From assembly GCA_001820175.1 (NCBI GenBank), contig MHOT01000010.1:8578-72577 (forward strand): a stretch of DNA of 64,000 bases. The letters run 5' to 3'. The notes below the pieces were generated by a model, which was given only the letters and a program-made list of their open reading frames with translations, was not told the DNA's origin and did not search any database. A program made the position numbers and the translations under genes. The DNA comes from Candidatus Staskawiczbacteria bacterium RIFCSPHIGHO2_02_FULL_42_22. GTDB taxonomy: Bacteria > Patescibacteriota > Minisyncoccia > Minisyncoccales > Staskawiczbacteraceae. Shown in pieces: positions 1,374 through 38,553 of this stretch (within the stretch, counting starts at the first letter, position 1; each line of letters begins with the position of its first letter).

Positions 1374-2525
1374 ATGAAAGAAGCAGTTTCCAAGCAAAAA
1401 ACGAGCGACTCGGTAATTCCCCCATCTATCGGTTCTATTGTAGAGGGAAAATTAATCGCCCGCGACCGGTCTTCTATTTTTATTGATTTAGGGCCGCAAG
1501 GAACCGGCATCATTTTTGGCCGAGAATTTTATGAGGTAAAAGATGCTATTAAAAACCTACAAATTGGCGATATTATCCACGCCAAAATCGTAGAACTGGA
1601 AAACGAAGAGGGCTACCGCGAATTATCACTGCAAGATGCCACTAAAGATATTAACTGGCAGAAATTACGCGAAATGAAAGATAATCAGGAAATTATCAAG
1701 GTGAAAATCACCGGGGTTAACAAAGGAGGACTGCTTACCAACATCAATAATATTGCGGCTTTCTTGCCGGTATCACAGTTATCTCCAGAAAATTATCCTA
1801 GGGTAACCGATGCCGATAAAGCCAAAATATTAAAAGAACTGCAAAAATTTATTGGCAAAACCTTGGAAGTAAAAGTGCTGGATTTGTTGGCTGAAGAAAA
1901 TAAGCTGATTTTGTCGGAAAAAGCCAAGACCGAACAGGCCATCAAGCAAATGCTCAATAACTACAAAAAGGGAGACGTGGTGGATGGAAAAATTACTGGC
2001 ATTGCTGATTTTGGAGTGTTTATTCGTTTTCCGCTCGCAGCGGAAAACGCGCAGAACAATGCGGAAATTAACCCTCCTTCGCCAGATGCTTCGGCGGGGC
2101 AAGGCGCGGAAAAACGCGGAAAAGACGATAGCATTGAAGGATTAATCCATATTTCTGAATTGGACTGGCAACTAGTTCAAAACCCCTCTGAAATTGTAAA
2201 AGTGGGAGAAATAATAAAAGCGCAGATTATTGATATTCACAATAACCAAGTATTTTTGTCGCTTAAATCGCTAAAAGAAAATCCTTGGGAAAAAATTGAA
2301 AAAGAGCATAAAAAGGGAGACATAATTAAGGGAAAAGTCATCAGTTTTAGCCCATTTGGCGCGTTTGTGGAAGTGATGCCAAAAATCCGGGGCCTCTGCC
2401 ACATTTCCGAATTTGCCAGCCAGAAGGAAATGGAGGACTCGCTAAAACCCGGCGAAATGTACGATTTTGAAATTTTGTTGATTGAACCAAAAGAGCACCG
2501 AATGAGCTTGAAATTGGTAAAATAA
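1374..2525 (+). CDS. rpsA: 30S ribosomal protein S1 (multi S1-domain)
   Basis: Repeated S1 RNA-binding domain signatures (G.IV.G.V..I....IFIDLG, GVFIRF...EGLIHISEL, FGAFVEV...GLCHISEF). Confidence 0.9.
   Translation: MKEAVSKQKTSDSVIPPSIGSIVEGKLIARDRSSIFIDLGPQGTGIIFGREFYEVKDAIKNLQIGDIIHAKIVELENEEGYRELSLQDATKDINWQKLREMKDNQEIIKVKITGVNKGGLLTNINNIAAFLPVSQLSPENYPRVTDADKAKILKELQKFIGKTLEVKVLDLLAEENKLILSEKAKTEQAIKQMLNNYKKGDVVDGKITGIADFGVFIRFPLAAENAQNNAEINPPSPDASAGQGAEKRGKDDSIEGLIHISELDWQLVQNPSEIVKVGEIIKAQIIDIHNNQVFLSLKSLKENPWEKIEKEHKKGDIIKGKVISFSPFGAFVEVMPKIRGLCHISEFASQKEMEDSLKPGEMYDFEILLIEPKEHRMSLKLVK
2031..2124 (+). repeat. In-frame repeat insertion inside an S1 domain (partner copy at 12258-12323)
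   Basis: Encodes AENAQNNAEINPPSPDASAGQGAEKRGKD between FIRFP and IEGLIHISEL; shares atgcggaaattaaccct and gcgcggaaa..cgcggaaaa with the copy in the MutY-like gene. Confidence 0.6.
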
Positions 2526-2578
2526 ATTTTAAGCCACCCACCAAAAAATCCGCTTCTGCGGATTTTTTGGTATAATGA
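2428..2578 (+). repeat. Direct repeat, left copy (authentic rpsA 3' end + terminator + TGGTATAAT)
   Basis: About 150 nt repeated at 3880-4029 with roughly 9 in 10 positions identical by eye. Confidence 0.85.
2543..2568 (+). terminator. rpsA terminator hairpin
   Basis: aaaaaatccgc ttct gcggatttttt. Confidence 0.75.
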
Positions 2579-2585
2579 TACATAT

Positions 2586-3446
2586 ATGAAAAATATTGTA
2601 ATTCCAAAGACAAATAACTCATCTCTTATTGCTCAATTAGGATCTTTTTATAATGCTTTTAAAAATATTACATTTGGAGAAAAAGTAATTATTGATGCAT
2701 CCTCATTGAATTGGGCACATCCTCTTTTAATATTACCTATAAGTGCTTATATTAACGAAACTCGAAGCGAAATCAATACGGATGACTGTAATGGTAATAT
2801 AAAATCATATTTAGAAATGATAAAATTCCCTAAGGGTGTGAATTCTATATCTTCTTTTCAAAAACAAATACAAAAATATAAGACATATATACCCATAAGC
2901 GTCTTACATAAGGAAAGCACTGTTGATAGGGAACGACTAGAATCACTATTTTCTGAAAAAATTTATGAAATTCTCGGGAATATACCAGGAGCCGAAAATG
3001 CAGTATTTTACCCAATATCAGAACTCATAACTAATATTTTTGAACATAGTAAAAAGGAACAGGGTTTTATTTTTGGACAATTTTATCCCAGTAAGAAATA
3101 TTTAGATGTCTGCATCGTTGATTGTGGCAGAGGATTTGCTAAGGCATACAAAGAAGAGCAAAACTTAGAATTATCAGATCAAGAAGCAATAATAGAAGCA
3201 ATGAAGGGTAATTCTATCAAAAAAGACAAAGAAAGAGGTTATGGTTTAAGAACTTCGAAAAACGTGATATGTAAGGCATTAAAGGGTGGAGGATTTATTC
3301 TTATTTCCGGTTCTTCTGCCCTTGTTTCTACAGAACAAGGGGAAAGATTAGTCTATTTAAAAGATTTCTATTGGCAAGGGACTATTATCGCCTATAGAAT
3401 ACCAAAACCCAATGGCCCCATTGACATATCTCCATACATAGAATAA
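2586..3446 (+). CDS. GHKL-type ATPase / RsbW-SpoIIAB-like serine kinase fold protein
   Basis: N-box ELITNIFEHS, G1 box DCGRGF, G2 box GYGLRTS in canonical order; about 27% GC over the first 60 nt. Confidence 0.65.
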   Translation: MKNIVIPKTNNSSLIAQLGSFYNAFKNITFGEKVIIDASSLNWAHPLLILPISAYINETRSEINTDDCNGNIKSYLEMIKFPKGVNSISSFQKQIQKYKTYIPISVLHKESTVDRERLESLFSEKIYEILGNIPGAENAVFYPISELITNIFEHSKKEQGFIFGQFYPSKKYLDVCIVDCGRGFAKAYKEEQNLELSDQEAIIEAMKGNSIKKDKERGYGLRTSKNVICKALKGGGFILISGSSALVSTEQGERLVYLKDFYWQGTIIAYRIPKPNGPIDISPYIE

Positions 3447-3489
3447 CAATATCTATTGTGGTATAATAACATTGAGCAATTAAAGATCT

Positions 3490-3858
3490 ATGAAAAATAA
3501 AAGCCATAATTTCATCACAATTAAGATAAGTAAATTATTGGCTCCTATTATAAGTTCTCGTGATGTAGCCAATGTATTGGAGGATAAAATAAATGAAACT
3601 GATACAACATCAGTAGTTTTGGATTTTAATAATATTAAATTCGTTTCTCGTTCAGCAACTCACTCATTGCTTGTATTGAAAGAAAAAATTGAAACCAATA
3701 TACCTAGGAGAGAATTGTCTTTCATTAATGCTAATAATGATGTTAAAGAAATGATTCGTACCGTAGCATCTAATAGGGCTTTCCCAAAAAAAGAAACGCC
3801 GGAATTTAATCCAGAAAAAACCGACATCGCTTCGCTATTAGAAGAAGCTGCCTTCTAA
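3490..3858 (+). CDS. STAS-like domain protein (DUF4325-like)
   Basis: SRDVANVLEDKI....VVLDFNNIKFVSRSATHSLL pattern typical of STAS-like DUF4325; sits directly after the GHKL gene. Confidence 0.55.
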   Translation: MKNKSHNFITIKISKLLAPIISSRDVANVLEDKINETDTTSVVLDFNNIKFVSRSATHSLLVLKEKIETNIPRRELSFINANNDVKEMIRTVASNRAFPKKETPEFNPEKTDIASLLEEAAF

Positions 3859-3879
3859 TTTTAGGACATTTTATTAAGG

Positions 3880-4029
3880 AGATGGAAGAATCCCTAAAAC
3901 CCGGCGAAACGTACGACTTTGAAATTTTATTGATTGAACCCAAAGAACACCGAATGAGCTTGAAATTGGTAAAATAATGCAATCCGCGCACCCAAAAAAT
4001 CCGCTTCTGCGGATTTTTTGGTATAATGA
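3880..4029 (+). repeat. Direct repeat, right copy (pseudo rpsA 3' end EMEESLKPGETYDFEILLIEPKEHRMSLKLVK* + terminator + TGGTATAAT)
   Basis: Aligns to 2428-2578; no upstream S1 coding sequence, so it is a gene-end remnant. Confidence 0.85.
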
Positions 4030-4033
4030 AACC

Positions 4034-13488: not shown

Positions 13489-13564
13489 GCGCGGTTAGCT
13501 CATTTAGCAGAGCGCATCGTTGACGTCGATGAGGTAATAGGTGCAATTCCTATACCGCGCACCA
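13489..13564 (+). tRNA. tRNA-Val, anticodon GAC (CCA encoded)
   Basis: Acceptor GCGCGGT/ACCGCGC, anticodon stem CATCG/CGATG, loop TTGACGT, T loop TGCAATT. Confidence 0.8.
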
Positions 13565-13584
13565 AAAAATATTTTTATAAAAAG

Positions 13585-14205
13585 ATGGAACACAATCTTT
13601 CAGAACCAAAATCAGAATTAGAAACACCGGAAAATTTCTTTTCGATAGATGAATTGGAAAAATTTCGAGAAGAGTTTTTTGAGAAAAATGACGTTCATTC
13701 GCAAGAGAATTCAAGAAAAGTGCATTTGGATTTCATAAAAGACCTCATTGATAATCGAGAAAGGTTTCAATACATTTTTGAAACGGAAAAGGGTTCCATT
13801 TATTTCGTTTTGCATTCAGGGGAAACAATGAGAATTAAAAAACACAAACCCGGTATTTGGCCAGGCGATTATCAAATTCAAAATTTCACGAAAAGAATAT
13901 TTTTTATTGATGCTTCAGAGGAAAATCGCTTAAAAGCAATGATATTGGAAGATAATAAAAAAGAAAACATCAACAAATTAGTCGGGAAAAAAATATTTTT
14001 AACAGAGCTGCGCGAAGGAGTTATCCCAATTGAAGTAGATGTAGTAGATTTATGGGAGGATGAAGAGCATGGAAGAAGGGCTATATTTGAATTTCGCGAT
14101 AATAAGATCGTTTTTAAGGGTGATAAAATCGGAGGTAGTATTAATGAAAAAAGCATTGGGCTTGTACACTTTGGTCATCCCATTTTTAAGATTATAAAAC
14201 AATAA
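13585..14205 (+). CDS. Hypothetical protein
   Basis: 206-aa low-GC ORF. Confidence 0.45.
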   Translation: MEHNLSEPKSELETPENFFSIDELEKFREEFFEKNDVHSQENSRKVHLDFIKDLIDNRERFQYIFETEKGSIYFVLHSGETMRIKKHKPGIWPGDYQIQNFTKRIFFIDASEENRLKAMILEDNKKENINKLVGKKIFLTELREGVIPIEVDVVDLWEDEEHGRRAIFEFRDNKIVFKGDKIGGSINEKSIGLVHFGHPIFKIIKQ

Positions 14206-14242
14206 GAAATATGTTAACCGGGTCGCAACAAATTAATATCCC

Positions 14243-14443
14243 ATGAAAACAACGTTTAAAAACCCAAAATTGGACTGGTGCAAGGATGAATTAAAGACAC
14301 TCTTAGAAAAACTAATCGAGAATAATTACCATACCACGGCGGAATTTGTGTTTGACCATATTGCCCACACCGGCGTGGACACTGACCTGCAGCCCGAATT
14401 AAAAAAAGAACCAGCGCTCGAAGAATTTTTAAAAAGCGAGTAA
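14243..14443 (+). CDS. Hypothetical small protein
   Basis: 66-aa ORF. Confidence 0.3.
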   Translation: MKTTFKNPKLDWCKDELKTLLEKLIENNYHTTAEFVFDHIAHTGVDTDLQPELKKEPALEEFLKSE

Positions 14444-14448
14444 GCACT

Positions 14449-14574
14449 ATGGATCTTCAAATACTATACGAAGATAGTGAAGCGATGGTAATATATAAGC
14501 CAGCGGGAGTGGTTTTTGAAGAAGGGGAAAATCCTTCGACAAACTTAAGTATAAACCAGGGGAAATTATTTTGA
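14449..14574 (+). pseudogene. Orphan 5' fragment of an RluA-family pseudouridine synthase gene
   Basis: Hand translation MDLQILYEDSEAMVIYKPAGVVFEEGENPSTNLSINQGKLF* parallels the N-terminus of the intact gene at 15860 (MELQIPYEDNDMLAIEKPAGVV). Confidence 0.6.
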
Positions 14575-14584
14575 CTCTAACTAT

Positions 14585-14746
14585 TAGACCTGTTGCGTAA
14601 TAAGATTAACAAGCGAAATGAAGCAATTTTGGCTAAAAAATCAGAAAAATAAGGAGGTTTGCCTAGAGGGCAAGCCGACGCATTTTTATGGTTTTTTAGA
14701 CGAAATTGCAAATTACAGCGTAAATTCTTATTACGCAACAGGTCTA
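14585..14746. mobile_element. MITE, TAGACCT family (A1)
   Basis: TIRs tagacctgttgcgtaataag / cttattacgcaacaggtcta; core gaggtttgcctagagggcaagccg shared in reverse with 19656-19862. Confidence 0.8.
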
Positions 14747-14764
14747 TTAAATAATAATTAAATT

Positions 14765-15682
14765 ATGAATCCGGAAAATCTAGAAACTAGAGACCGAAAT
14801 GAGTCCGACTTGGGGGTTATAGTATTTGAAATAGAAAATTTATTGCCTACTCAAAAATTTGATAAAAAAATATTTCCCAGGAACGAAAAACCGATTGGAG
14901 AAATGATGAAGCTTTCAAATGGACTAAGAGAATCAATACTGCCAGAGGGTGGGCTAAACATATCTTCTGCTGATCAGATAGATGAAATAACTTTAGACCT
15001 TTATAATTTATGGAGGGATGCCCAGTTTTCATTGGGATTTCAAAAAATATTAGAAAACAAAAAAATAATTCCACGGGAATCTTTTTTTATCGGAGATATT
15101 GGTTCAGCTCATTGCATATCAGTGGGATTGGCCATGATGAATAACAATATACCTTGTAATTTTGTTTTTAAAAAAGATATAGGACCCAGAGTAAAAGATA
15201 TGATGTTACTTATCGGTGACGAATTAAATAATAGAAATAAAATAACTGTTCCCGCAGGCGCCGCTACATTAACGGATTGCCATCGAAATGAACCCTATAA
15301 ACCGAGGGAGAAAAAATATAGTATTCAACCCTCGGATTTCCCTGCGCCAGAAGAATTAAAAAATAAGGGTATTACACAGATTGTGCTTCTTAAAGAAGTA
15401 GAAACTGGAAGGGAATTTCATAACTTTGAATATCCATCAGACGATAATTCGGTATTGAATCCATATAAATTAAGTGGAATGGAAATTATTACTATAGGAA
15501 TTGATGAGGTATGGCGATACAATTCCGTGCATGGCGGTGAAAAGGATCGCGAACTATTTGGAAGGGACATAAATTCACAGCGTTCTCTTAAAGAAGCATT
15601 AAAATCTATAATTACAGTAGGGGATCGCAAAAAATTATGTGATTTATTGTCTGGTAGAAATATTGAAAAAATTAATCCTTAG
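14765..15682 (+). CDS. Hypothetical protein (low-GC, bracketed by two MITEs)
   Basis: 305-aa ORF; stop codon lies inside the TIR of the next MITE. Confidence 0.5.
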   Translation: MNPENLETRDRNESDLGVIVFEIENLLPTQKFDKKIFPRNEKPIGEMMKLSNGLRESILPEGGLNISSADQIDEITLDLYNLWRDAQFSLGFQKILENKKIIPRESFFIGDIGSAHCISVGLAMMNNNIPCNFVFKKDIGPRVKDMMLLIGDELNNRNKITVPAGAATLTDCHRNEPYKPREKKYSIQPSDFPAPEELKNKGITQIVLLKEVETGREFHNFEYPSDDNSVLNPYKLSGMEIITIGIDEVWRYNSVHGGEKDRELFGRDINSQRSLKEALKSIITVGDRKKLCDLLSGRNIEKINP

Positions 15683-15840
15683 GCCTCGTCCGTAAATAAC
15701 GTCCACCTTTTCATCCAATCTGCCCGCCATCTTGGCTCCAAAAAATGCTCGGCATAACTTTATTATGCCTCACATTTTTTTGAGCCAAGGCGACAGGCAT
15801 CTTGGCGAAAATCCTGGACGTTATTTACGGACGAGGCCTT
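15681..15840. mobile_element. MITE (AGGCCTCGTCCGTAAATAACGTCC TIRs)
   Basis: aggcctcgtccgtaaataacgtcc...ggacgttatttacggacgaggcct. Confidence 0.75.
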
Positions 15841-15859
15841 AGATATTGAAGATATATAA

Positions 15860-16606
15860 ATGGAACTTCAAATACCATATGAAGACAATGATATGCTCGC
15901 CATAGAAAAGCCGGCGGGGGTGGTGGTTTTTAATGAAGCCGCCGCGCCCGCTGGCGCGGCGGCTAAAACAGTCATTGATATGCTTTTAGAAGCGCGTCCT
16001 AACCTAAAAAATGTAGGCGAAGCGCCGCGGTATGGGGTCGTGCATCGGCTCGATAAAGACACCTCCGGCATCCTTTTGGTGGCAAAAACGGCCGATGCCT
16101 TGATTTTTTTGCAAAAACAGTTTAAAAATAGAGAGGTAGAAAAGAAATACACCGCCTTGGTAGAGGGTATCATAAAAGAACCATGGGGTACCATTCATAC
16201 CTTGATGGGTAGGGCTAAAGGGGATCCGCGAAAGCAAAAGGCCTACGCATTGGAATTACCAATATCCAATACCCAATTTCCAAAAAATGTGGCGGGAAAA
16301 AGAGAAGCCATTACCGATTATAACGTATTGAAAAAATTTACTGGTTATGCGTTACTGGAAGTTAAGATAAAAACTGGCCGAAAACACCAGATACGCTGCC
16401 ATTTAGCGTATATTCATCATCCGGTAGCCGGAGACACATTGTATGGATTTAAAGATTCACCGGTGCCAAAGGGGTTAGCAAGACAATTTCTGCATGCATC
16501 ATATTTAAAAATTACATTACCAAGCGGAGAAACTAAAGAATTTAAGTCGGAATTACCAGAAGAGTTGCAAACAATAATTAAGAATATGGAATCTGGTATC
16601 TTGTAG
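15860..16606 (+). CDS. RluA-family pseudouridine synthase (no S4 domain)
   Basis: KPAGVVV, catalytic HRLDKDTSG, GRKHQIRCHL. Confidence 0.85.
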   Translation: MELQIPYEDNDMLAIEKPAGVVVFNEAAAPAGAAAKTVIDMLLEARPNLKNVGEAPRYGVVHRLDKDTSGILLVAKTADALIFLQKQFKNREVEKKYTALVEGIIKEPWGTIHTLMGRAKGDPRKQKAYALELPISNTQFPKNVAGKREAITDYNVLKKFTGYALLEVKIKTGRKHQIRCHLAYIHHPVAGDTLYGFKDSPVPKGLARQFLHASYLKITLPSGETKEFKSELPEELQTIIKNMESGIL

Positions 16607-16688: not shown

Positions 16689-17117
16689 ATGTCAATAAAA
16701 TTACAAACATTTAATAAGGCACAAGAAAAACAAATGCCGGATATCCGCCCTGGCGATACGGTTCGCGTACACCAAAAAATAAAAGAAGGCGACAAGGAAA
16801 GAATCCAAATTTTTGAAGGCATCGTTATTGCCCGAAAACATGGCAAGGGAATTTCCAGCACCATTACTGTGCGAAAAGTGGTTGACCAAGTTGGCGTGGA
16901 ACGGATTTTCCCAGTACACTCGCCATCGCTTGCCAAAATAGAAGTGACAAAATCCAGCAGCGTGCGCAGGTCAAAACTGTACTACCTCAGAACCGCCAAA
17001 GGCGCTAAAGGAAAATTAAAGAATAAAGAATTAGCCGCGGCTATTGCACCGGAAGAAAAACCGGTTATGGAAACACTTATGGAAGCTCCACAAGAATCAG
17101 CTCCAGAAACAAAATAA
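16689..17117 (+). CDS. rplS: 50S ribosomal protein L19
   Basis: [30 protein letters not shown]...T.TVRK. Confidence 0.9.
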
Positions 17118-17169
17118 ATAGCGGAGTCTGGTATACGCCGACACCTTGAGGTATAATAGAATAATATCT

Positions 17170-17814
17170 ATGAAACCTTTAGGAAAAGTTAAAATTATAT
17201 GGACGCCACAGTTTGCTTATGCGATAGGGTTATTGACTACTGATGGCAGTCTTTCAATTGACGGACGCCATATAAGTTTTACATCTAAAGACAAACAGCA
17301 GGTTGATAATTATAAGCTTTGCTTTGGTCTTGAAAATAAAATTGGAAAAAAGGCGAGAGGAGGAGAAACGGAAAAAAAATACTATGTATTACAGTTCGGA
17401 GATGTGAATTTTTACCGGTTTTTATTAGGCATTGGATTGACGCCAAACAAATCTAAAACACTTGGAAGTTTAAAGGTTCCCGAAAGATATTTCTTTGACT
17501 TTCTAAGAGGACATTTGGATGGGGACGGTTATTTTTATTCCTATTGGGATCCACGCTGGAAGTCGAGCTTCATGTTTTACATAGGTTTTATTTCTGCAAG
17601 TAAAAATCATATTGAATGGCTCAGGGATAATATTGCAAAAAAGTTGGGAATAAAGGGCCATATTACAGCGAGTATTAGTAGTTCAGTTTATCAGTTAAAG
17701 TACGCTAAAACTGAAACGCTAAAATTATTACCCAAATTATACTATAGCGAAAATGTCGTCTGTTTAGATAGGAAACGTAAAAAGATTGAAAAAGCTTTGT
17801 TGATTGTGAGATAA
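17170..17814 (+). CDS. LAGLIDADG homing endonuclease (free-standing)
   Basis: YAIGLLTTDGSL and LRGHLDGDGYF motifs; ATG 17170 preferred because GGTATAAT (-10) lies inside the tracked 5' extension. Confidence 0.8.
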   Translation: MKPLGKVKIIWTPQFAYAIGLLTTDGSLSIDGRHISFTSKDKQQVDNYKLCFGLENKIGKKARGGETEKKYYVLQFGDVNFYRFLLGIGLTPNKSKTLGSLKVPERYFFDFLRGHLDGDGYFYSYWDPRWKSSFMFYIGFISASKNHIEWLRDNIAKKLGIKGHITASISSSVYQLKYAKTETLKLLPKLYYSENVVCLDRKRKKIEKALLIVR

Positions 17815-18162: not shown

Positions 18163-18215
18163 TTGTTAAACCGCTATGTTATAATATAAGCATAATATAA
18201 CTAACAGGTTTGATT

Positions 18216-18878
18216 ATGAAACTTGAAGAAAAAAATTTAGCAATACATTTACGAAAACTAGGATGGTCAATGAATGAAATCAAAAGTAAAATAGGGGTTT
18301 CCAAAAGTAGTGTTAGTTTGTGGGTAAGAGATATACAGCTCACCGATAATCAAAAAATGAAACTGTCCCAAAAAGGACTAACAAAAGAGTCAATTGAAAA
18401 AAGGAGAACAACCAGACTTGGCAGAGAAAACGCACGAAGACAAATTATTGTTGATGGTGCTAAAAAAGAAATACCTGGTTTATCAGACCAAGAGTTAAAG
18501 CTTGTAGGAATAGCTTTATATTGGGGAGAGGGAGGAAAAGCTAATCGTGGGTCGGTCCAATTATCAAACGGAGACCCCCGGATTATACAGTTGATGATGA
18601 AGTTTTTCAAAAGAGTTTGCAAAGTACCTAAAGAAAAATTTAGAGGACACATCCATATACATCCCCACCTTAACGTAAAAAAATCAGAACATTACTGGTC
18701 GTCCATCTCCGGCATTCCGTTAAACCAATTTTATAAAACCTACTCTAAGCCAAATAAAAGTAGTCAAAGCAAAAAGAATTCATTGCCATTTGGAACATTT
18801 GATATTTACGTACACAACACTGAACTATTTTTGAAAATTAAAGGGTGGATCGAAGCTGTATATGATAATGTTATTTAG
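18216..18878 (+). CDS. HTH + LAGLIDADG-like (GLYWGEGGK) endonuclease-like protein
   Basis: N-terminal HTH (LGWSMNEIKSKIGVSKSSVSLWV), LVGIALYWGEGGK motif; paralog at 52223-52912. Confidence 0.45.
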   Translation: MKLEEKNLAIHLRKLGWSMNEIKSKIGVSKSSVSLWVRDIQLTDNQKMKLSQKGLTKESIEKRRTTRLGRENARRQIIVDGAKKEIPGLSDQELKLVGIALYWGEGGKANRGSVQLSNGDPRIIQLMMKFFKRVCKVPKEKFRGHIHIHPHLNVKKSEHYWSSISGIPLNQFYKTYSKPNKSSQSKKNSLPFGTFDIYVHNTELFLKIKGWIEAVYDNVI

Positions 18879-19073: not shown

Positions 19074-19174
19074 CAAAATTTTCCGAGAAAATTTTGAGCG
19101 AGGTTCGCCCTTTTTGGGCGACCCGCTCTCAATTAAAAAATTTGAGCACAAATTTTTGACCGAGAATTGTACTA

Positions 19175-19337
19175 TAGACCTACTGCGTAAAGATTTTTCT
19201 ACTGCGCCGCGCATATTTTGGCTGCGAAAAGCCAATCGCTCATCGACAGATTTAAGTTCAATATGCCTCTTCGCGCTTTGCTTTTCTCGCTACAAAATAT
19301 GCGCGGCTCGCTACGAAAACCTTTACGCAGTAGGTCT
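19175..19337. mobile_element. MITE, TAGACCT family (B1)
   Basis: tagacctactgcgtaaag...ctttacgcagtaggtct; reverse-oriented near-identical copy at 38291-38454 (both yield the same 40-aa pseudo-peptide in the ORF track). Confidence 0.85.
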
Positions 19338-19351
19338 TATCTATTTCCTGT

Positions 19352-19609
19352 ATGTTTTATATTTATATTCTCCAAAGTCTCAAAGATAGTAAAACTTACG
19401 TTGGATATACGAATAACCTGGAAAGAAGATTAGTTGAACATAATTCTGGAAAAAATATTACTACGAGAAATCGCACACCATTAGAATTGCTATTTTCTGA
19501 AAATTTTGAAACCTCAAAAGAGGCAAGAGAAAGAGAATTGTATTGGAAAAGCGGAGGCGGAAGAAGAAAGTTAAAAGAGTTTTTTGAAAAAGGTTTTCCA
19601 GTCACTTGA
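19352..19609 (+). CDS. GIY-YIG nuclease domain protein
   Basis: FYIYILQS..DSKTYVGYTNNLERRLVEHN. Confidence 0.8.
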   Translation: MFYIYILQSLKDSKTYVGYTNNLERRLVEHNSGKNITTRNRTPLELLFSENFETSKEARERELYWKSGGGRRKLKEFFEKGFPVT

Positions 19610-19655
19610 GTCGCCTTTTGGGCGATTTTTTAGTGGTTATTCTAAAATTTTACAA

Positions 19656-19862
19656 TAGACCTGTCCCTAAATAAGAATTTACGCTGCAATTTGCAGTTTT
19701 GGCCCGAGACGCAGGCGTAATTGGCCGCGGCCAATTCGCCCCGTCTGGAGCAAACCTGCTAAAATTCATCGGCTTGCCCTCTAGGCAAACCTCTTCATTT
19801 TATCAGATTTTCGCTCAAAACTGCTGCGTTTCGCTTGTTAATTTTATTTAGGGACAGGTCTA
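19656..19862. mobile_element. MITE, TAGACCT family (A2)
   Basis: tagacctgtccctaaataag...cttatttagggacaggtcta. Confidence 0.8.
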
Positions 19863-19983
19863 ATGTAAAACCGCGAGGCGCGACTTTTCGGAACGGACGG
19901 AACGGTTCCCCCCTTACAAAAACAATGGGCCGCGCTTCGCGCGGCCGTCCAACTCGTCGGTCGAAAATCAAAAAGTTTTATAG

Positions 19984-21539
19984 TGGAGTACATTTACAAC
20001 GAGGATCGAACCCATTTTATGGAGAACGAGTGAAGAACGCCGCGCGCCTGCGGGCGCGCGGCACGACGAACGAACGGCAACCGCACGGACAGGCAAAAAT
20101 TTTCTCCCCCAGACCAGAATTTTTGCGTGCTTGCCAAAAAACTTTTTGTGATTTTATGTTTTTTATGATAGTATCAAGGTAAAATTATGCCAGAAAATAT
20201 TGGGGAAAAATTGTCATCCGCGGACGAAAAAGAACCAACTACGAAAGAGTTGGAAATTCCAAAATCAGCTTCCGATGAAGTAAATCCGCGCAAAAAACGC
20301 ACAACCGATCTTGCCCCGCCCGTAGAAATACAGGCGAAATTGGAAAAGGAAGTAGAAGATCTTTCTAAAGAAGAAATAGAGAGGATTATGGAAAAGGTGG
20401 AAGACATTAATTCTATGGGAACAACGAGCCATGCAGTGCGAGAGGGTAGCGGTTATGTCTCAGCCAAATCTCCTGAGAGCAAAAAAAGGAGAAATTTTAA
20501 TATCCTTTCTAATATCCTTAACCATGGCATTATTGGTGGTCCAAGGAACTGGAATGATGCGGATTTTTTGAGTAACGAAAAAAGTATAAAAGCTATTTTT
20601 AAAAACCTATCATATGCTAGACGCGCGGGTCATGGTTGGCCTACTTTCGTTGTCGATATAAATGAATTGCCTTCCGATAGGCCATTTTCTAGAGTTGGGT
20701 GGATAGGAGAAAATGGTATTGCACTTATTGTTGATAAAGAATTTGCAAAAACCAAACGAGATAGGTTGTATAAAAAACGTATCTATAGTAGGGGTGGAAA
20801 GGAAAAGAGCGGTAATACTACAACTTCAACAAGAATTCCCCCGAGGTTTATTAAGGGTATTGTTATTAATCCCGTGGCCAGTGTTAAAGCTATAGAAGAA
20901 GAGTCAAAAATTTTAGAAAAACGAGAAAATATTATCAATGAAATATTGGAATTGCGAAAATTTCTGTATTCACAAGTAGAGAAGCAACTTGGAGATAAAA
21001 CAAAATTTATTGTATCTATCACGGATGAGGTCAAAAAAAGTCATAGTGATGTTATGTTGAAATTAAAGGAGTTAAATTTGCAAATTGCATTAGTTTATAA
21101 GGAAATTGAAAAGATTAACCCTGATCTCTATCATCAATTACATTATCCAAAAATTCTAAATCCGTTCACGCAGCCAGAAAATAAAGATGTACAGTCCTTT
21201 TTTGAGGAAGTTATAAAAACGGAACGACAAAGCAATGTACTGTTACCCATTTATAGTCTGGATGGTGATTTATTGTGGCCAAAAAAGATGAATTATGAAG
21301 AAGTAAAAAAGTTTGTTGAAGAAAGAGAAAAAGTAAAAGAGAAAGGCGAGCAGTAGAATAATTCCATAAAATCACAAAAAGTTTTTTGGCAAGCACGCAA
21401 AAATTCTGGTCTGGGGGAGAAAATTTTTGCCTGTCCGTGCGGTTGCCGTTCGTTCTTCGTGCCGCGCGCCCGCGGGCGCGCGGCGTTCGTCACTCGTTTT
21501 CCATAAAATGAGTTCGATCCTCGTTGTAAATGTACTCCA
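19984..21539. mobile_element. Single-ORF element bounded by 175-bp terminal inverted repeats (19984-20158 and 21365-21539)
   Basis: Arms differ at about 5 internal positions by eye; each arm holds the palindrome gccgcgcgcc(t/c)gcgggcgcgcggc; spurious ORFs 19835-20182(+) and 21293-21493(-) share the peptide ERQPHGQAKIFSPRPEFLRACQKTFCDFM. Confidence 0.8.
20187..21356 (+). CDS. Hypothetical protein carried between the 175-bp inverted repeats
   Basis: 389-aa ORF, acidic/lysine-rich N- and C-termini, no transposase motif I recognise. Confidence 0.55.
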   Translation: MPENIGEKLSSADEKEPTTKELEIPKSASDEVNPRKKRTTDLAPPVEIQAKLEKEVEDLSKEEIERIMEKVEDINSMGTTSHAVREGSGYVSAKSPESKKRRNFNILSNILNHGIIGGPRNWNDADFLSNEKSIKAIFKNLSYARRAGHGWPTFVVDINELPSDRPFSRVGWIGENGIALIVDKEFAKTKRDRLYKKRIYSRGGKEKSGNTTTSTRIPPRFIKGIVINPVASVKAIEEESKILEKRENIINEILELRKFLYSQVEKQLGDKTKFIVSITDEVKKSHSDVMLKLKELNLQIALVYKEIEKINPDLYHQLHYPKILNPFTQPENKDVQSFFEEVIKTERQSNVLLPIYSLDGDLLWPKKMNYEEVKKFVEEREKVKEKGEQ

Positions 21540-21913: not shown

Positions 21914-22214
21914 ACCTGTTGCGTATTAAGGATTTGCTGCAAATTGCATATTGCACCTGCGGGGATGCCCTGCGGGTCAAGGGCTGAAAATTTGCTATAC
22001 CTAGTATAATTTGTCGCTCGTTCGAAAAAGAATAATTGCTATTCTTCTTTTTCTCTCTCGCTTAGCAAATTATAATTTTTCGGTCAAGATGTGGGTAAAT
22101 TTGTAGCAACAAATTTCCCCATCTCCGGGCCTATGGGCAAGCCGAAAAATTCTATCAAATTTGCAGCTCGAAATCTTGAATTTTCGTAACAAACCTTATT
22201 TAGGGACAGGTCTA
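21911..22214. mobile_element. Chimeric/nested MITE, TAGACCT family (A3)
   Basis: Left TIR of the gttgcgtattaag type, right TIR of the ccctaaataag type; carries an extra about 80-nt module that recurs inverted at about 44360-44440. Confidence 0.75.
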
Positions 22215-27602: not shown

Positions 27603-27673
27603 AGGCCCGGATGGGAATTGCACCCATGTACACGGTTTTGCAGACCGTTCTCTGGCTACTTGAGTACCGGGCC
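27603..27673 (-). tRNA. tRNA-Cys, anticodon GCA
   Basis: Acceptor GGCCCGG/CCGGGCC, stem ACGGT/ACCGT, loop CTGCAAA, T loop TGCAATT. Confidence 0.8.
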
Positions 27674-28438
27674 ATACATTTTTAATGTTTCGAGTATGTT
27701 GTTATCAATTTTTCGATTACGATTTTGAAAATACTTTATAAAATTATCTCTTTTTCTCTTAAGAAACAAAGTATCTCCTAATTGATTGCCATAAAAAACT
27801 TGAAACCATCGCATGCTTTCTGAGGTTGAGTATTTTAGACGATACGCTCGACTACCAAAATACATCTTTCCACTTCTAAATCCCATACTTTCAAATTTAT
27901 TACGTAATCCTTCTAAGAATACTTTGCTGCCACTGGTAAAAATAACTGCTAGTCCCCTAGAAATTTCTTGGCCGTACTTTCCCTTTCCTTTCATAATATG
28001 CACACAACCATCTCCATCAAAATATCCTCTGACAAAATGACTTAAGCAATCCACGGGAATATCGTGGGGGAACTCAGTTATTAAAGATTTTCTAGGTGTT
28101 AAACCTAGCTTTAATAAATCTGCAAACATTTCTCGACTGCCAATCCTTAACCTAAAAGCTTCTCTACTTTTGTATGCTCCATTTAAATGGACGGCTATTC
28201 TCTCGGGCTTAATTTGGATCTTGTGATTCGAAGACAATGCTATCTTTATCTTTTCTATAATCTCCTTATCGGCACTATCAAAACTTACATATTGGGTTCT
28301 GGAAATAACTGAATCCATAATATTTCCATCCGCATACATAAATCCTAAAACATACGCCATTTCTGGTGTCCATGTTTTGAAAAAATCCTTATTGAATTGA
28401 TAACGATTGTGACCTCCGCGATGGTCTAAAGAAAACAT
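27656..28438 (-). CDS. LAGLIDADG homing endonuclease (two motifs), 3' end overlaps tRNA-Cys
   Basis: MAYVLGFMYADGNI and VRGYFDGDGCV; the last codons GPVLK* are the tRNA-Cys 5' acceptor/D-arm. Confidence 0.8.
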   Translation of the reverse strand: MFSLDHRGGHNRYQFNKDFFKTWTPEMAYVLGFMYADGNIMDSVISRTQYVSFDSADKEIIEKIKIALSSNHKIQIKPERIAVHLNGAYKSREAFRLRIGSREMFADLLKLGLTPRKSLITEFPHDIPVDCLSHFVRGYFDGDGCVHIMKGKGKYGQEISRGLAVIFTSGSKVFLEGLRNKFESMGFRSGKMYFGSRAYRLKYSTSESMRWFQVFYGNQLGDTLFLKRKRDNFIKYFQNRNRKIDNNILETLKMYGPVLK

Positions 28439-28469: not shown

Positions 28470-28853
28470 TTATTTTTCCTCTTTTTTCAAGGTTGCTAAG
28501 ATTCCTTCAATCTTGGCGGCACTGGCGATTTGGGTGTCCTTTACAAACCTGATGCGTGGAATAGGGCGCATATTCAGCTTTTTATTAATCTGTTGCTGGA
28601 TATCGTACACCTGACCATTAAGTATCTTAATTACCTGGTCAGTTTTTTCCTCGGGTAATACAGAAATATACCCCTTAGCTTCAATTAAATTTGGGGTGGT
28701 TTCAACTTTAGTTAGGGTAATTATGGTTCCATGAAAATCCCGCCCATCTTTGGATGGGCGAGGCTCGCCAAGGGCGGCAAAATCCCGCACCATAATCTGG
28801 CTGATTTCTTGCTCCAGGAGGGAATTGACTTTGTCGGTGCGATTCCTTGACAT
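28470..28853 (-). CDS. rbfA: Ribosome-binding factor A
   Basis: R..KVNSLLEQEISQI......ITLTKVE.T.NL.EAKGYISV. Confidence 0.8.
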   Translation of the reverse strand: MSRNRTDKVNSLLEQEISQIMVRDFAALGEPRPSKDGRDFHGTIITLTKVETTPNLIEAKGYISVLPEEKTDQVIKILNGQVYDIQQQINKKLNMRPIPRIRFVKDTQIASAAKIEGILATLKKEEK

Positions 28854-28885
28854 ATAATGTAATTTATACTATAATTATATCGTGT
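28814..28885. repeat. Direct repeat, copy 1 (authentic rbfA 5' end + promoter region)
   Basis: ccaggagggaattgactttgtcg...tttgacata...attatat repeated at 29348-29417. Confidence 0.7.
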
Positions 28886-28929
28886 CAATTTTCGTCTGCT
28901 TTCAGGCACCTTCTGTGTAGGAAAAAGAA

Positions 28930-29289
28930 ATGAGTGAACTCAGGAAATGGATCGTAACGATCGGAATCGCACTGGGAGCGATTTTGATCTATGTGTTGTT
29001 CTGCACAACAATGATGTTGGCCCTAAGTTTTCATAAGGGTCACTGGATTATGGCGGCTTTGATGGTCGCTATAGCTGTGCTCATTGGATATCAGGGCTAC
29101 AGATACGCCATCATGACCTATGGGGCTTGGAGGGCAGAAAAATCGCCTGACTACGAGCCATGGATCTTCTACGCATCGTTCATTTTCGAAAAATGGTCGT
29201 GGCGGAAATGCCTCATGCGTGCCGTACTTTATAGCGCTGTGAGTGTGGTCATTATCGGACTTGCCGCTGCGCTGGTCATTTTCATGTAA
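28930..29289 (+). CDS. Small integral membrane protein (GC-rich orphan)
   Basis: 119 aa, about 4 hydrophobic spans; followed by hairpin gcccgagattggtatatctcgggctttt. Confidence 0.5.
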   Translation: MSELRKWIVTIGIALGAILIYVLFCTTMMLALSFHKGHWIMAALMVAIAVLIGYQGYRYAIMTYGAWRAEKSPDYEPWIFYASFIFEKWSWRKCLMRAVLYSAVSVVIIGLAAALVIFM

Positions 29290-29347
29290 CGAAAATTCTC
29301 CGCTCTGACCATTGCCCGAGATTGGTATATCTCGGGCTTTTCTTTTT

Positions 29348-29417
29348 CCAAGAGGGAATTGACTTTGTCGATACGGTTTGACATAATATTTAATTTTTGC
29401 TATTATATATCCGTGTT
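29348..29417. repeat. Direct repeat, copy 2 (pseudo rbfA 5' end: MSNRIDKVNSLLEKE on - strand)
   Basis: Aligns with 28814-28885. Confidence 0.7.
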
Positions 29418-29452
29418 ACACCCCTCCTTTCTCAATTTCGGAGTTCTGTATC

Positions 29453-33814: not shown

Positions 33815-35569
33815 ATGAAGGTTGACCCTGACAAATTATTAAAATTTATTTTGGAAGCGGGCCTCATTACCGAAAAGCAGTTTGCCGATGTCCTGGCAAA
33901 GAGCAAAAAGTCCAACCAAGAAGTGGCAGACATCTTGGTTTCTGACAAATTAATTACCCAAAAAGAACTGATAAAAATAGAGGCCTATATTTTGGGAATT
34001 CCTTTTATCAATTTGGAAGGCGAAGTCATCGCCCCCGCTATTTTAAAAATTATTCCCGAATCCATTGCCCGGGCCCACAACATTGTGGCGTTTCGAAAAA
34101 ATGACAACAACTTGGAAGTGGCCATGGTAGACCCCGAGGATTTACGCACCATTGCCTTTATTGAAAAAACCATGCCGTCGATAAAAATTCTGCCCCGATT
34201 AACTACTCCAGAAAGCATTAAAAATGTCTTGGGCCAGTACCAAAAAACCCTGGAAACGGAATTTAAAGATATTATCCAGTCAAGCGACCAAACGGAAATT
34301 AAGCACATTAAGGAGGGGGACCTATACGAGGGGAAAGAAGAAATAAAAAAAGCGGCTGAAGATGTGCCAATTATAAAAATTGTCGATACCCTACTCAAGC
34401 ACGCTATTTTGCAAGATACCTCCGATATCCATATTGAGCCGCTCGAAAAAGAAGTAATCGTGCGTTACCGGGTTGACGGCATTTTGCACGATGTGATGAC
34501 TTTGCCCATTTCCACGGCGCTTGGCATTGTGGCCCGCATCAAAGTGCTTTCCAATTTAAAGCTCGACGAACATCGCCTACCCCAAGACGGCCGTTTTAAA
34601 ATTGAAACTAATGAATTTAAATATTCAGTGAGGGTTTCGGTATTGCCGGTGTTTAATGGTGAAAAAATTGTGATGCGGCTCTTGGCTGAAAACACCAAGT
34701 CCGCCTCGTTGGATAAATTGGGTTTTTCAGGGAAGGTATTAAAACAAATTCAGGATAACTTACAAAAATCCTCAGGTATGATATTGATTACCGGTCCTAC
34801 GGGGTCGGGAAAAACCACTACCTTGTATGCCATGATGGAAATTCTTAATACCCCCGAGGTGAATATTTCCACCGTAGAAGACCCCATTGAATACCGAATG
34901 CCTCGGGTTAATCAAACCCAGGTCAATGCCCAGATTGGCTTGACGTTTGCGGCGGGACTGCGTGTTTTGGTGCGGCAAGACCCGGATATTATCATGGTGG
35001 GAGAAATCAGAGACGATGAAACCGCGGGCCTGGCCATTAACGCCGCGCTGACCGGGCACCTGGTGCTTTCTACCCTGCACACCACTGAAGCGGCGGGTGC
35101 CATTCCGCGCCTGATTGACATGAAAGCTGAGCCATTTTTAATTTCCTCAACCGTGGATTTAATTATTGCCCAGCGACTGGTACGGAAATTCGCCGGTGAA
35201 AAAGAAAAATATACATTAAATGCTTCTGAATTAGCCAATGTGCAAAAATATTGCAACCTGGAAAAGATTTTGAAAATTTTAAAAGAGGATAAAATAGTAA
35301 AACCAAAGGCGGCCGTAAAAGACATTGAATTTTATCGGCCCAAGCCGGGAAAGGATTCAAGCGATGGATACAAAGGGCGGCTGGGGATTGTGGAGGTTTT
35401 GAGGGTGAGTGAGCCCATTCGCGAATTAATTATAAAAAGATCCAGCACCCGCGAAATTGCCAATCAGGCCATACAAGAGGGCATGCGTACCATGGTGGAA
35501 GACGGATTTGTTAAAGCGGCGCTGGGACTGACATCGATTGAGGAAATCTTGAGAGTGATCACCGAATAA
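33815..35569 (+). CDS. pilB: Type IV pilus assembly ATPase PilB/GspE
   Basis: Walker A GPTGSGKTTT, Asp box, His box, Walker B IIMVGEIRD. Confidence 0.9.
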   Translation: MKVDPDKLLKFILEAGLITEKQFADVLAKSKKSNQEVADILVSDKLITQKELIKIEAYILGIPFINLEGEVIAPAILKIIPESIARAHNIVAFRKNDNNLEVAMVDPEDLRTIAFIEKTMPSIKILPRLTTPESIKNVLGQYQKTLETEFKDIIQSSDQTEIKHIKEGDLYEGKEEIKKAAEDVPIIKIVDTLLKHAILQDTSDIHIEPLEKEVIVRYRVDGILHDVMTLPISTALGIVARIKVLSNLKLDEHRLPQDGRFKIETNEFKYSVRVSVLPVFNGEKIVMRLLAENTKSASLDKLGFSGKVLKQIQDNLQKSSGMILITGPTGSGKTTTLYAMMEILNTPEVNISTVEDPIEYRMPRVNQTQVNAQIGLTFAAGLRVLVRQDPDIIMVGEIRDDETAGLAINAALTGHLVLSTLHTTEAAGAIPRLIDMKAEPFLISSTVDLIIAQRLVRKFAGEKEKYTLNASELANVQKYCNLEKILKILKEDKIVKPKAAVKDIEFYRPKPGKDSSDGYKGRLGIVEVLRVSEPIRELIIKRSSTREIANQAIQEGMRTMVEDGFVKAALGLTSIEEILRVITE

Positions 35570-35570
35570 A

Positions 35571-35643
35571 ACATTTGACAATTGACATTTGACAATTGAC
35601 CAGCGTTTCGTTGGTCAAATGTCAATGGTTAATGGTCAATGGT
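35571..35643. repeat. Word-stutter hairpin (TTGACA/ATTGAC words)
   Basis: acatttgacaattgacatttgacaattgaccagcgtttcgttggtcaaatgtcaatggttaatggtcaatgg. Confidence 0.8.
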
Positions 35644-35651
35644 AGTTTAAC

Positions 35652-36866
35652 GTGCCCAACTATTTTTACACCGCCAAATCATTTGACGGCCAAACCAAAA
35701 CCGGAACCCTATTTGCCAACGATATTATGCAGCTTGCCAAGGCCTTAAAAGCCGAAAATATGCTGCTGATTAAGGCAATTTCTTCTGACCAAAAAAAGAA
35801 GGGGTCTTGGAATATGCTAATCCCCTCGTTTGGCGTAAGCACCAAGGAAAAAATCATGATGACAAGGAATTTATGGATCATGTTTTCAGCGGGACTGTCT
35901 TTGGTAAAAATTTTCGACATTTTATCGGCTCAAACAAAAAACACCAAGTTAAAAAATATTATGCTCAATGTGAATGTTATGCTTAATAAAGGGGAATCGT
36001 TTTCTGACGCTTTGGCAAGGTATCCCAAGGTCTTCAATGACTTTTTTTTAAGCATGGTAAAGATTGGGGAAGAATCAGGAACGCTTGAGGCAACATTTGA
36101 AATATTGTCCAACCACATGGACCGCGACTGGGAACTAAAATCGAAAATACGGGGGGCGCTCATTTATCCTTGCATCATTTTAATTGTCATGGGCGGAATT
36201 GGCATTGTGGTCTCAACTTTCGTGTTGCCGAAATTTTCTTCTTTTTTACTGGGCATGAATATCCCCCTGCCTCTTTACACTAGAATTTTAATTGGCCTTG
36301 GCACCTATTCACAGCGGTATTGGTATTTGTCGCTGGTGATTCCCGTGGTTTTGGCATACGCCTTTTTTATGGCCATGAAGACCCGGACGGGGCGATTGAC
36401 CCGGGATACCATACTCTTGCGCGTACCACTGCTTTCTTCTTTTATTAAAAAGTCCAACGCTACAATCATTATAAGATCCTTAAGTTCATTGAATAGTTCT
36501 GGCATTTCTTTGGTGCGGTCATTGGAAATTACGGGTGCTACGGCACCAAACATTTACTTTAAAAATGCCCTCAATAATGCCATAGAAAAAGTAAAAAAGG
36601 GAGAAAAATTATCCAATGCGTTAAAACCCTACGCAAAAATTTTTCCTTTTGGGGCGATTGATATGATGGAGGTGGGTGAAGAAACGGGAAAAACGTCACT
36701 GGTATTAAAAAAACTGGCTGAATTTTATGAGCAAGAAGTGATTGAAGAGACCAAGAATTTTTCTGTTATCATTGAGCCGCTCTTGTTGATTTTTCTGGGG
36801 CTCGTAGTGGCCTTCTTTGCCATTTCAATTATTGAACCGATGTATTCGTCATTAAAAAGCATTTGA
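35652..36866 (+). CDS. pilC: Type IV pilus platform protein PilC/GspF
   Basis: Two T2SS-F repeats, 3 TM segments, GTG start. Confidence 0.85.
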   Translation: MPNYFYTAKSFDGQTKTGTLFANDIMQLAKALKAENMLLIKAISSDQKKKGSWNMLIPSFGVSTKEKIMMTRNLWIMFSAGLSLVKIFDILSAQTKNTKLKNIMLNVNVMLNKGESFSDALARYPKVFNDFFLSMVKIGEESGTLEATFEILSNHMDRDWELKSKIRGALIYPCIILIVMGGIGIVVSTFVLPKFSSFLLGMNIPLPLYTRILIGLGTYSQRYWYLSLVIPVVLAYAFFMAMKTRTGRLTRDTILLRVPLLSSFIKKSNATIIIRSLSSLNSSGISLVRSLEITGATAPNIYFKNALNNAIEKVKKGEKLSNALKPYAKIFPFGAIDMMEVGEETGKTSLVLKKLAEFYEQEVIEETKNFSVIIEPLLLIFLGLVVAFFAISIIEPMYSSLKSI

Positions 36867-36935
36867 CCATTGACATTTGACTTTTGACTGACGAAAACGA
36901 GCAGCATTTGATAATTGACATTTGGCTTATGGCTT

Positions 36936-37310: not shown

Positions 37311-37358
37311 AAGATAACAATTGACGTTTAACTATTAACAGGTGACTAAAAAACATCT

Positions 37359-38276: not shown

Positions 38277-38290
38277 CACCATTTTTACTA

Positions 38291-38454
38291 AAGACCTACT
38301 GCGTAAAGGTTTTCGTAGCGAGCCGCGCATATTTTGTAGCGAGAAAAGCAAAGCGCGAAGAGGCATATTGAACTTAAATCTGTCGATGAGCGATTGGCTT
38401 TTCGCAGCCAAAATATGCGCGGCGCAGTAGAAAAATCTTTACGCAGTAGGTCTT
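38291..38454. mobile_element. MITE, TAGACCT family (B2), inverted copy of 19175-19337
   Basis: aagacctactgcgtaaag...ctttacgcagtaggtct, begins 15 nt after the pilin stop. Confidence 0.85.
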
Positions 38455-38553
38455 AAGTAAAAATGAAATTTCAAATTTCTAATTTCTAATTTCTAATAAT
38501 AAGGTGTCGAAATTTTCACAAAGGAAAATTTCGACGGATTTAATCATTTCAAA

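Follow-up and report, generated by a model that had tools for sequence, protein, structure and literature searches.

A truncated second allele of a pseudouridine synthase gene marks a probable recombination scar in a Candidatus Staskawiczbacteria genome

Several described systems place foreign genes next to conserved ones. The minimal mobile elements of Saunders and Snyder in Neisseria reportedly occupy slots between conserved genes, where strain-specific cassettes are swapped by transformation and flanking homology. Tyrosine-integrase elements that insert at gene ends (tRNA genes, dusA, fda, rpsI) carry a surrogate end of their target, and integrase-less derivatives of such elements, the cis-mobilizable elements (CIMEs), exist. 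In homology-facilitated illegitimate recombination (HFIR), as outlined in later summaries, one homologous anchor is combined with one illegitimate joint (de Vries & Wackernagel 2002, PMC122324, and Prudhomme et al. 2002, PMC122325, as cited in PMC5361080; summary in PMC3240628). Insertion with long target duplication is described for restriction-modification (R-M) genes, mostly of naturally competent species (Furuta et al. 2010, PMC2853133; also Nobusato et al. 2000). Displacement arrays are exemplified by Rhs C-terminal displacement and by the effector-immunity arrays of the Vibrio cholerae type VI secretion system (PMC5361080). Here we analyse a 64-kb stretch of DNA, referred to as the window, from a Candidatus Staskawiczbacteria genome (candidate phyla radiation (CPR)/Patescibacteria; Rifle aquifer). 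In this window a 5' fragment of an RluD-like pseudouridine synthase gene, rluD', lies upstream of an intact synthase gene, with other DNA between them. The fragment most likely marks the place where imported DNA was stitched in via a conserved gene.

The locus begins with a small gene of 66 amino acids (aa), which is followed after 5 nucleotides (nt) by an open reading frame (ORF) of 41 codons. Then come a palindromic element of 168 nt (element 1), an ORF of 305 aa (ORF305), a second palindromic element of 165 nt (element 2), 17 nt of spacer, the intact synthase gene (248 aa) and rplS (Table 1). We call the synthase gene rluD because RluD was the best named match in NCBIfam (rluA_subfam, 184.9 bits) and the protein has no S4 domain. 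In the related loci L011, L012, L024 and L025, rluD likewise precedes rplS.

The 41-codon ORF (14449-14574) is a genuine 5' remnant of an RluA-family (RluD-like) synthase gene. When the six-frame translation of the window was compared all against all, 14 of 22 residues were identical between remnant and intact synthase (E = 3.6e-5), and at the nucleotide level positions 14449-14513 and 15860-15924 form a 65-nt direct repeat of 75% identity. A profile built from 119 RluD-like homologues, leaving out the window's own gene, matched the remnant at profile positions 1-31 (hmmsearch, E = 2e-6); this was the only match in the window besides the intact gene. The KPAG motif is retained, one conserved Val codon is deleted and a Tyr replaces the usual acidic residue before KPAG. 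Because the reading frame ends after 41 codons, before the aspartate of the catalytic HRLD motif, the remnant cannot be an enzyme; it has no match to the synthase domain in Pfam (PF00849). A preliminary description of the window had placed the remnant, the ORF and the flanking miniature inverted-repeat transposable elements (MITEs) essentially correctly, and its view of the fragment as the orphan 5' end of a synthase gene agrees with both the alignments and the profile match. A public gene call lists the 41-aa remnant as a gene, which it almost certainly is not.

The arrangement is not an assembly artefact: at least six independent samples from JGI and ENA yielded contigs, some of them 20-78 kb long, in which it recurs with 99.9-100% identity. 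That the rluD alleles of two strains were joined during metagenome assembly is an idea to which we attach next to no probability. Contig L006 indicates that assemblers can switch loci within element 2, but the junction between the fragment and ORF305 is unique sequence and was seen in all of the samples just mentioned. The public contig L006 changes within element 2 (3299-3460) from the ORF305 locus to the locus of a PEGA-domain gene, which reflects either a second copy of the element or an assembly chimera at the repeat. L006 was accordingly rejected as a variant of the locus lacking rluD.

Where the remnant came from is indicated first by its nearest relatives. When it was ranked against 120 RluD-like proteins, the best match was P0012 (score 104) and the adjacent gene came 84th (score 79); the best-scoring relatives were orthologues from other Parcubacteria. 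That is, the remnant is closer to orthologues elsewhere than to the gene next to it. Over its first 63 nt, identity was 75% with both the neighbour and L011, and 73% with L014. A second indication comes from the hypervariable loop that directly follows the KPAGVVVF motif in this synthase family. The remnant has a loop of the NPST type, with 12 identical bases in common with L011 (AATCCTTCGACA), whereas the loop of the intact gene is a perfect GC-rich palindrome with more than 20 bases in common with L012 (GCCGCGCCCGC.GGCGCGGCGG).

A third indication involves two further loci. Three times within the 64 kb we found the same architecture: a gene end, a cargo of low or odd GC content and a second copy of the gene end. 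At rpsA the repeat comprises the last 34 codons, the terminator and the promoter (158 nt); its copies are 91% identical in the coding part and unalignable over a 15-nt spacer, and 40 of 41 positions are identical in the terminator-promoter part. The terminators at the rpsA position of the relatives L016 and L017 are unrelated. The rpsA cargo encodes a 286-aa protein of a phage family (phrog_3364, weakly HATPase-like, with only a weak DrmA-like match in PADLOC) and a 122-aa STAS-like protein, which may be a defence or regulatory pair. At rbfA about 85 nt are repeated, including the promoter and the first 16 codons, with the second copy at about 29339-29420. The enclosed ORF for a 119-aa membrane protein has a high GC content at third codon positions (GC3) and its own terminator, and gave no match in PADLOC. 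The preliminary description had counted rluD as the third locus with cargo between duplicated gene ends, and the rpsA and rbfA cases proved real; we infer that they are scars of the same process.

At all three loci the differences between the copies were sorted by codon position. Third positions account for 10 of 17 differences in the rluD pair (P = 0.03), 8 of 9 coding differences at rpsA and 3 of 6 differences at rbfA (pooled, 21/32, P = 1.9e-4). A redundant copy that decays in place is expected to change evenly across codon positions. Because the differences concentrate at third positions, both copies would have diverged as working genes, and divergence while both were functional implies separate lineages. 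Neighbour rank, loop types and codon-position bias together point to a retained piece of rluD from another lineage than the intact gene. Thus, the two rluD copies appear to be different alleles joined by transfer, that is, xenologues rather than in-situ duplicates, and the claim that the fragment is a diverged duplicate of the adjacent gene was not supported.

A tandem duplication of the gene terminus in situ, caused for instance by slippage or unequal exchange during the capture of foreign DNA and followed by decay of the spare copy, would explain why both rluD copies have a rare Gln4 codon and match at 18 of their first 20 nt, and why the two rpsA repeats, with their 91-98% identity, stop at one and the same base. 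However, the pooled third-position bias does not fit decay, and the remnant is nearer to the family consensus and to other orthologues than to its neighbour. Moreover, the two loop types differ, each being common to a different relative, and at rpsA an unalignable spacer lies between flanks of 91% and 98% identity. We give in-situ duplication little chance.

To place the locus in context we compared six related loci (L011, L012, L014, L024, L025 and the P0017 contig). Most of them have the same backbone of FtsH, HhH-GPD, a YafQ toxin-antitoxin pair, tRNA-Val(gac), a slot, rluD, rplS and a tRNA cluster. The content of the slot differs in all six: a NUDIX gene in L011, a gene for a 100-aa membrane protein in L012, a homologue of the 66-aa gene (73% identity) in L014, a 99-aa gene on the P0017 contig, a 119-aa gene with a 40-aa ORF read as HicA-like in L025, and nothing in L024. 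In five of the six, a small gene or gene pair thus stands directly before rluD. Judging from this comparison, the interval 13565-15859 appears to be a recombination hotspot between conserved anchors. In L014, tRNA-Val(gac) is followed by the 66-aa gene and, 2 nt further on, by the start of rluD, so the synthase gene directly follows the small gene, as the preliminary description had thought might be the case in relatives. The variable slot and the native adjacency of the 66-aa gene and rluD are therefore observed, and the remnant in the window sits in the native position of rluD, since L014 has rluD there.

At the slots of insert-free L011, L012, L014, L024 and L025, which belong to other species and not to a sibling strain, the repeat is single-copy. 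No other rluD remnant was found in L011, L012, L024 or L025, nor in L014, where the slot and the first 63 nt of rluD were covered. Homologues of the 66-aa gene with 70-76% identity were found in L013-L015. Outside the slot, this gene lies between rpsG and fusA (L013, 4003-4201) and directly after tRNA-Met (L015, 4001-4201), and from these positions it appears to be mobile itself.

The cargo of the slot is compositionally foreign. GC3 is 0.26 in ORF305, compared with about 0.38-0.48 in housekeeping genes; the cargo at rpsA has values of 0.22-0.24 and that at rbfA a value of 0.59. ORF305 has a single close homologue (58% identity), encoded in a CPR genome of about 1 Mb (L001) between genes for a LysE-family protein and an acetyltransferase, with neither MITEs nor rluD nearby. 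An HMMER scan of 1.84 billion representatives returned 28 uncharacterised relatives, about 27 of them distant, and none of the ten that were checked had a Pfam domain. G113, H116, H173, R174 and E211 are invariant in the family. ORF305 itself had no match in Pfam, NCBIfam, PADLOC or PHROGs, and the Pfam scan found no nuclease domain of the kind seen in homing endonucleases (LAGLIDADG, GIY-YIG, HNH or similar). Its AlphaFold2 model (mean predicted local distance difference test, pLDDT, 74.7) predicts a Rossmann-like fold, and a Foldseek search against the PDB gave nothing below E = 0.04, with template modelling scores of about 0.25. ORF305 is a real gene that, on these predictions, gives no sign of encoding a nuclease or recombinase. 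The second orphan in the slot, the 206-aa ORF, had no match in Pfam, NCBIfam or PHROGs and no relative in the scan of genome contigs.

Since the two palindromic elements bracket ORF305, the preliminary description had treated MITE, ORF and MITE as one unit. Both elements form hairpins over their full length (z = -14.1 for element 1 and -15.5 for element 2), and both MITE-like families are multicopy: relatives of element 1 lie within the window at 19647-19864, from 21909 onward and at 39692-39902, all in unrelated contexts, and a second copy of element 2 with a different flank occurs elsewhere in the community (L006). At gathering threshold, Rfam found tRNAs only and no known RNA family for the palindromes. 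The internal sequences of the two elements are different and their termini related (AGRCCTSKTSCGTAA). Each sits in its own short spacer and is bounded by its own TA/TTA. Removing both in silico leaves the remnant, 27 nt, ORF305, 17 nt and rluD, with spacers that are short, as they are in the relatives, in which rluD and the slot gene overlap or are only a few nucleotides apart.

The two elements were probably inserted later and independently into these spacers and were not the vehicle of the insertion, because their sequences differ, each is flanked separately by TA/TTA, their copies are scattered over unrelated contexts and none stands beside the ORF305 homologue in L001. A composite transposon of MITE, ORF and MITE that jumped into rluD is highly improbable. 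The position of ORF305 between the elements, their related termini and the TA-type flanks would fit it, but transposition makes no diverged copy of 66-120 nt of its target, the elements differ internally and occupy separate spacers, the ORF305 homologue in L001/L002 is without such elements, and no MITEs are present at the rpsA and rbfA loci. A composite of MITEs or insertion sequences (IS) was rejected because the bracketing elements are not two copies of one element and the unit does not recur around the homologue in L001/L002. The preliminary description had proposed a search for ORF305 elsewhere with the same MITEs on its flanks; the L001 homologue has none.

Based on these results, we propose, with a probability of about 60%, that two alleles of the slot, [66aa-rluD'] and [ORF305-rluD], were stacked by recombination that was homologous on one side and illegitimate on the other, that is, by HFIR. 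The two, written [66aa-rluD(A)] and [ORF305-rluD(B)] after their synthase alleles, would stem from separate genomes that are related to each other. On one side the incoming DNA would recombine homologously within a conserved gene, the candidate anchors being tRNA-Val(gac) at the left end and rluD-rplS at the right end, and on the other side it would be joined illegitimately, about 41 codons into one rluD allele. Selection would remove products without an intact rluD; only products with one intact rluD would survive, so that one complete gene and a truncated xenologous 5' end remain. The palindromic MITE-like elements would have transposed later into TA/TTA sites of the two short spacers. We infer the recombination pathway, the order of these events and any direction of transfer. 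Homology to a conserved gene, which the preliminary description had also named as the handle for integration, is the most plausible handle. The distinct integration mode that it had postulated is not required, as known recombination pathways give this pattern.

Such a pathway is plausible for this group, because the window encodes type IV pilus genes and Patescibacteria have competence and homologous-recombination genes, with Saccharibacteria being naturally transformable (PMC10633639, PMC12455944). The pilus cluster (33815-42578; a PilC-like T2SSF protein, a pilin with an N-methylation motif, and PilM) is, by its gene content, consistent with a capability for DNA uptake.

Several points weigh against stacking by HFIR. 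Each diverged repeat pair contains a near-identical core: the first 20 nt with the rare Gln4 codon at rluD, the terminator-promoter beside its unalignable spacer at rpsA (40/41), and 19 identical nt at rbfA. Plain HFIR accounts for such cores only with added later conversion, and they would follow directly from a single-crossover (Campbell-type) or att-like mechanism. The codon-position signal of rluD alone is modest (P = 0.03), and an old in-situ duplication followed by replacement of the loop at rluD is possible. Scans of genome contigs with the 206-aa ORF and ORF305 found neither an empty-site genome nor a donor genome. Finally, either rluD(A) or rluD(B) could be the resident allele: identities to L011 and L012 in blastn were about equal on both flanks, and the GC3 values are ambiguous as to the direction of transfer. 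Look-ups of exact proteins led to no strain but this one, always in this arrangement.

The near-identical cores bear most directly on another explanation, a dedicated homology-addressed or site-specific cassette system in which each cargo is accompanied by a copied end of a housekeeping gene. Integration would take one crossover at a short core, either from a circle (Campbell-type) or with the help of an integrase acting in trans, and the gene end that was displaced, or its surrogate, would stay behind as the second repeat. Precedents for integration of this kind are the CIME-like remnants left by integrative elements with gene-end targets. Three occurrences of one architecture in 64 kb, a core inside each repeat pair and an rpsA terminator-promoter that is 98% identical between the copies yet not conserved in L016 and L017 would all be expected of such a system, and the xenologous gene ends look like the element-borne surrogate ends known from tRNA, dusA, fda and rpsI targets. 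However, neither the ORFs of the inserts nor the further window ORFs that were tested showed an integrase or recombinase domain, and hence no recombinase was detected in or next to an insert. The three cores have no common motif, the cargos are unrelated and tiny (0.45-1.3 kb), and no second instance of a cassette with its arm was found elsewhere. The rluD core also lies at the outer end of the repeat, and an att core that regenerates a 5' end belongs at the inner boundary; there, we found no identical core and no similarity, the longest identical run being 10 nt at the outer end. A dedicated cassette system is thus unlikely.

We would regard as a rather long shot the more specific idea of unrecognised, recombinase-free homology-addressed cassettes, in which a small cargo carries an arm copied from a conserved gene end, is excised as a circle through recombination between its flanking repeats and, once taken up by a related genome, is re-inserted by a single crossover at a short core of near identity. 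The essential gene would then always be regenerated and a xenologous gene end left as a footprint. If this were true, CPR bacteria would have a RecA-dependent cassette system with conserved ribosome-related genes as its attachment sites.

Table 1. Features of the rluD slot and of the two parallel loci (positions in the window)
Feature	Position	Strand	Remarks
tRNA-Val(gac)	13489..13564	+	Conserved left border, the variable slot running from here to rluD; ARAGORN and Rfam; also before the slot in L011, L012 and L014
206-aa orphan ORF	13585..14205	+	Slot cargo; low GC3 (0.28)
66-aa small gene	14243..14443	+	Natively abuts the rluD start; GC3 0.48, native-like
rluD' remnant	14449..14574	+	41 codons; second RluA-family allele of the NPST-loop type; ends before the catalytic HRLD motif
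Putative illegitimate junction, end of rluD homology	14568..14582	.	Alignment to L011 rluD fades after about 14568; placement tentative
Palindromic MITE-like element 1	14582..14749	.	Terminal inverted repeat TAGACCTGTTGCGTAATAAG; TA/TATTA flanks
ORF305	14765..15682	+	Cargo; uncharacterised, real gene; predicted Rossmann-like alpha/beta fold
Palindromic MITE-like element 2	15678..15842	.	At the ORF305 stop codon; central bidirectional terminator-like hairpin at 15751-15769
Intact RluA-family (RluD-like, without S4) pseudouridine synthase gene	15860..16606	+	PF00849, E = 5e-31
GC-rich perfect palindrome in the rluD loop (AAAPAGAAA)	15937..15964	+	In frame; allele type common to L012 and P0004
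rplS	16689..17117	+	PF01245; conserved right neighbour, possible homologous anchor
rpsA case	2424..4032	+	3' end, terminator and promoter (2424-2581) repeated at 3876-4032 around a two-gene cargo
rbfA case	28805..29420	-	Promoter and first 16 codons repeated around the 119-aa membrane ORF (28930-29289, +)

Other features of the window touch on these subjects. The palindrome in the rluD loop (15937-15964) has a perfect 12-bp stem, is GC-rich and is in frame, encoding AAAPAGAAA. Among the 120 homologues, the loop after KPAGVVVF holds many unrelated short inserts, for example NPSTGSGQF, PSFAKASEGKAN, ESLKSEEKT and STRPSLVGKT, and this variety suggests a hotspot for the in-frame insertion of short elements. 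Such inserts recall the Rickettsia palindromic elements.

Further long palindromic MITE-like families with the terminus AGACCTnnTGCGTAA are represented at 19167-19338 and 38291-38462 and at 21982-22214, 39699-39841 and 44343-44444. Some repeat pairs with this terminus are 96-98% identical, which suggests recent activity. A 47-aa 'gene' called publicly at 14618-14761 lies entirely inside element 1 and is almost certainly not a gene. An ORF of 389 aa (20187-21356, in the region 19984-21539) has no family match and is flanked by 175-nt inverted repeats of 97% identity, the tips of which resemble a tRNA T-arm; it may belong to an uncharacterised IS-like element. As a candidate MITE transposase it was rejected, since its 175-nt inverted-repeat ends do not match the MITE ends.

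Free-standing ORFs beside tRNA genes form two paralogous pairs. In the first, 17146-17814 has a Pfam match to LAGLIDADG_3 and 27656-28438(-) is its paralogue without such a match; in the second, 18210-18878 and 52223-52912(-) have no LAGLIDADG match and show only a weak helix-turn-helix. Both 17146-17814 and 18210-18878, which lie beside rplS, are absent from the syntenic position in L011. L012 has no counterpart of 17146-17814 and carries a 220-aa ORF of no assigned identity where 18210-18878 would lie. A GIY-YIG gene is present at about 19352-19609. Inteins interrupt FtsH and GyrA of a relative (L012, 1-2220; L016), the FtsH intein having a LAGLIDADG domain; the FtsH of the window has no intein.

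On present evidence, this is no new class of element: the locus is a scar left by a known type of recombination, well preserved and found in a phylum that has been little studied, and it is useful as a marker of gene flow among CPR bacteria. It offers a sequence-level picture of how accessory genes are gained in streamlined CPR genomes, with housekeeping and tRNA genes serving as recombination handles and short xenologous gene ends persisting as datable scars. Mining genomes for such scars could map donor-recipient relations and recombination hotspots in uncultivated bacteria. There is also a warning for annotation, as the called 41-aa and 47-aa 'genes' are a pseudogene remnant and an ORF internal to a MITE. 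Mechanisms of this class have been described before, in Acinetobacter, Streptococcus, Helicobacter and Vibrio and at Rhs loci, so that the locus serves as an illustration, and nothing about it would be conceptually new unless a dedicated cassette system were at work.

Among the described systems, minimal mobile elements resemble the locus in having a slot with variable cassettes between two conserved genes, but they are said to be exchanged cleanly, leaving no gene-end remnant. Integrative elements at gene ends likewise leave a duplicated, slightly different end of a housekeeping gene on either side and keep the gene intact; they differ in having an integrase, an att core in the right position and inserts of many kb, compared with 0.45-1.3 kb here. 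In displacement arrays, successive modules anchored on a conserved gene push earlier ones aside and leave orphan gene ends as scars, as here. Those arrays, however, move the 3' toxin tips and immunity genes of polymorphic toxin loci, whereas the scars in the window are ends of ribosome-related housekeeping genes, and 5' ends in the case of rluD and rbfA.

HFIR is alike in its homologous anchor in conserved DNA, its one illegitimate joint, the foreign cargo beside the anchor and the involvement of related, naturally competent bacteria. It was demonstrated in experiments with Acinetobacter, Streptococcus and Pseudomonas, whereas for this CPR bacterium it is deduced from sequence, and near-identical repeat cores are not one of its standard features. 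Its footprint is the one also left by the displacement arrays and by insertion with long target duplication. Insertion with long target duplication involves a small insert without a mobility gene, direct repeats of more than 30 bp, of which the empty-site genome has a single copy, and cargo of deviant GC content. The same is seen here, where inserts of less than 20 kb without a mobility gene are surrounded by repeats of 65-120 nt (rluD), 158 nt (rpsA) and about 85 nt (rbfA). R-M cargo was not detected, as ORF305 and the rbfA ORF have no PADLOC match and the rpsA protein only its weak DrmA-like one. The repeats described for that process are usually 90-100% identical, unlike those of rluD, which are 75% identical and apparently xenologous; the rpsA case (91-98%) fits best. 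On our preferred reading, the locus belongs to the same class as insertion with long target duplication.

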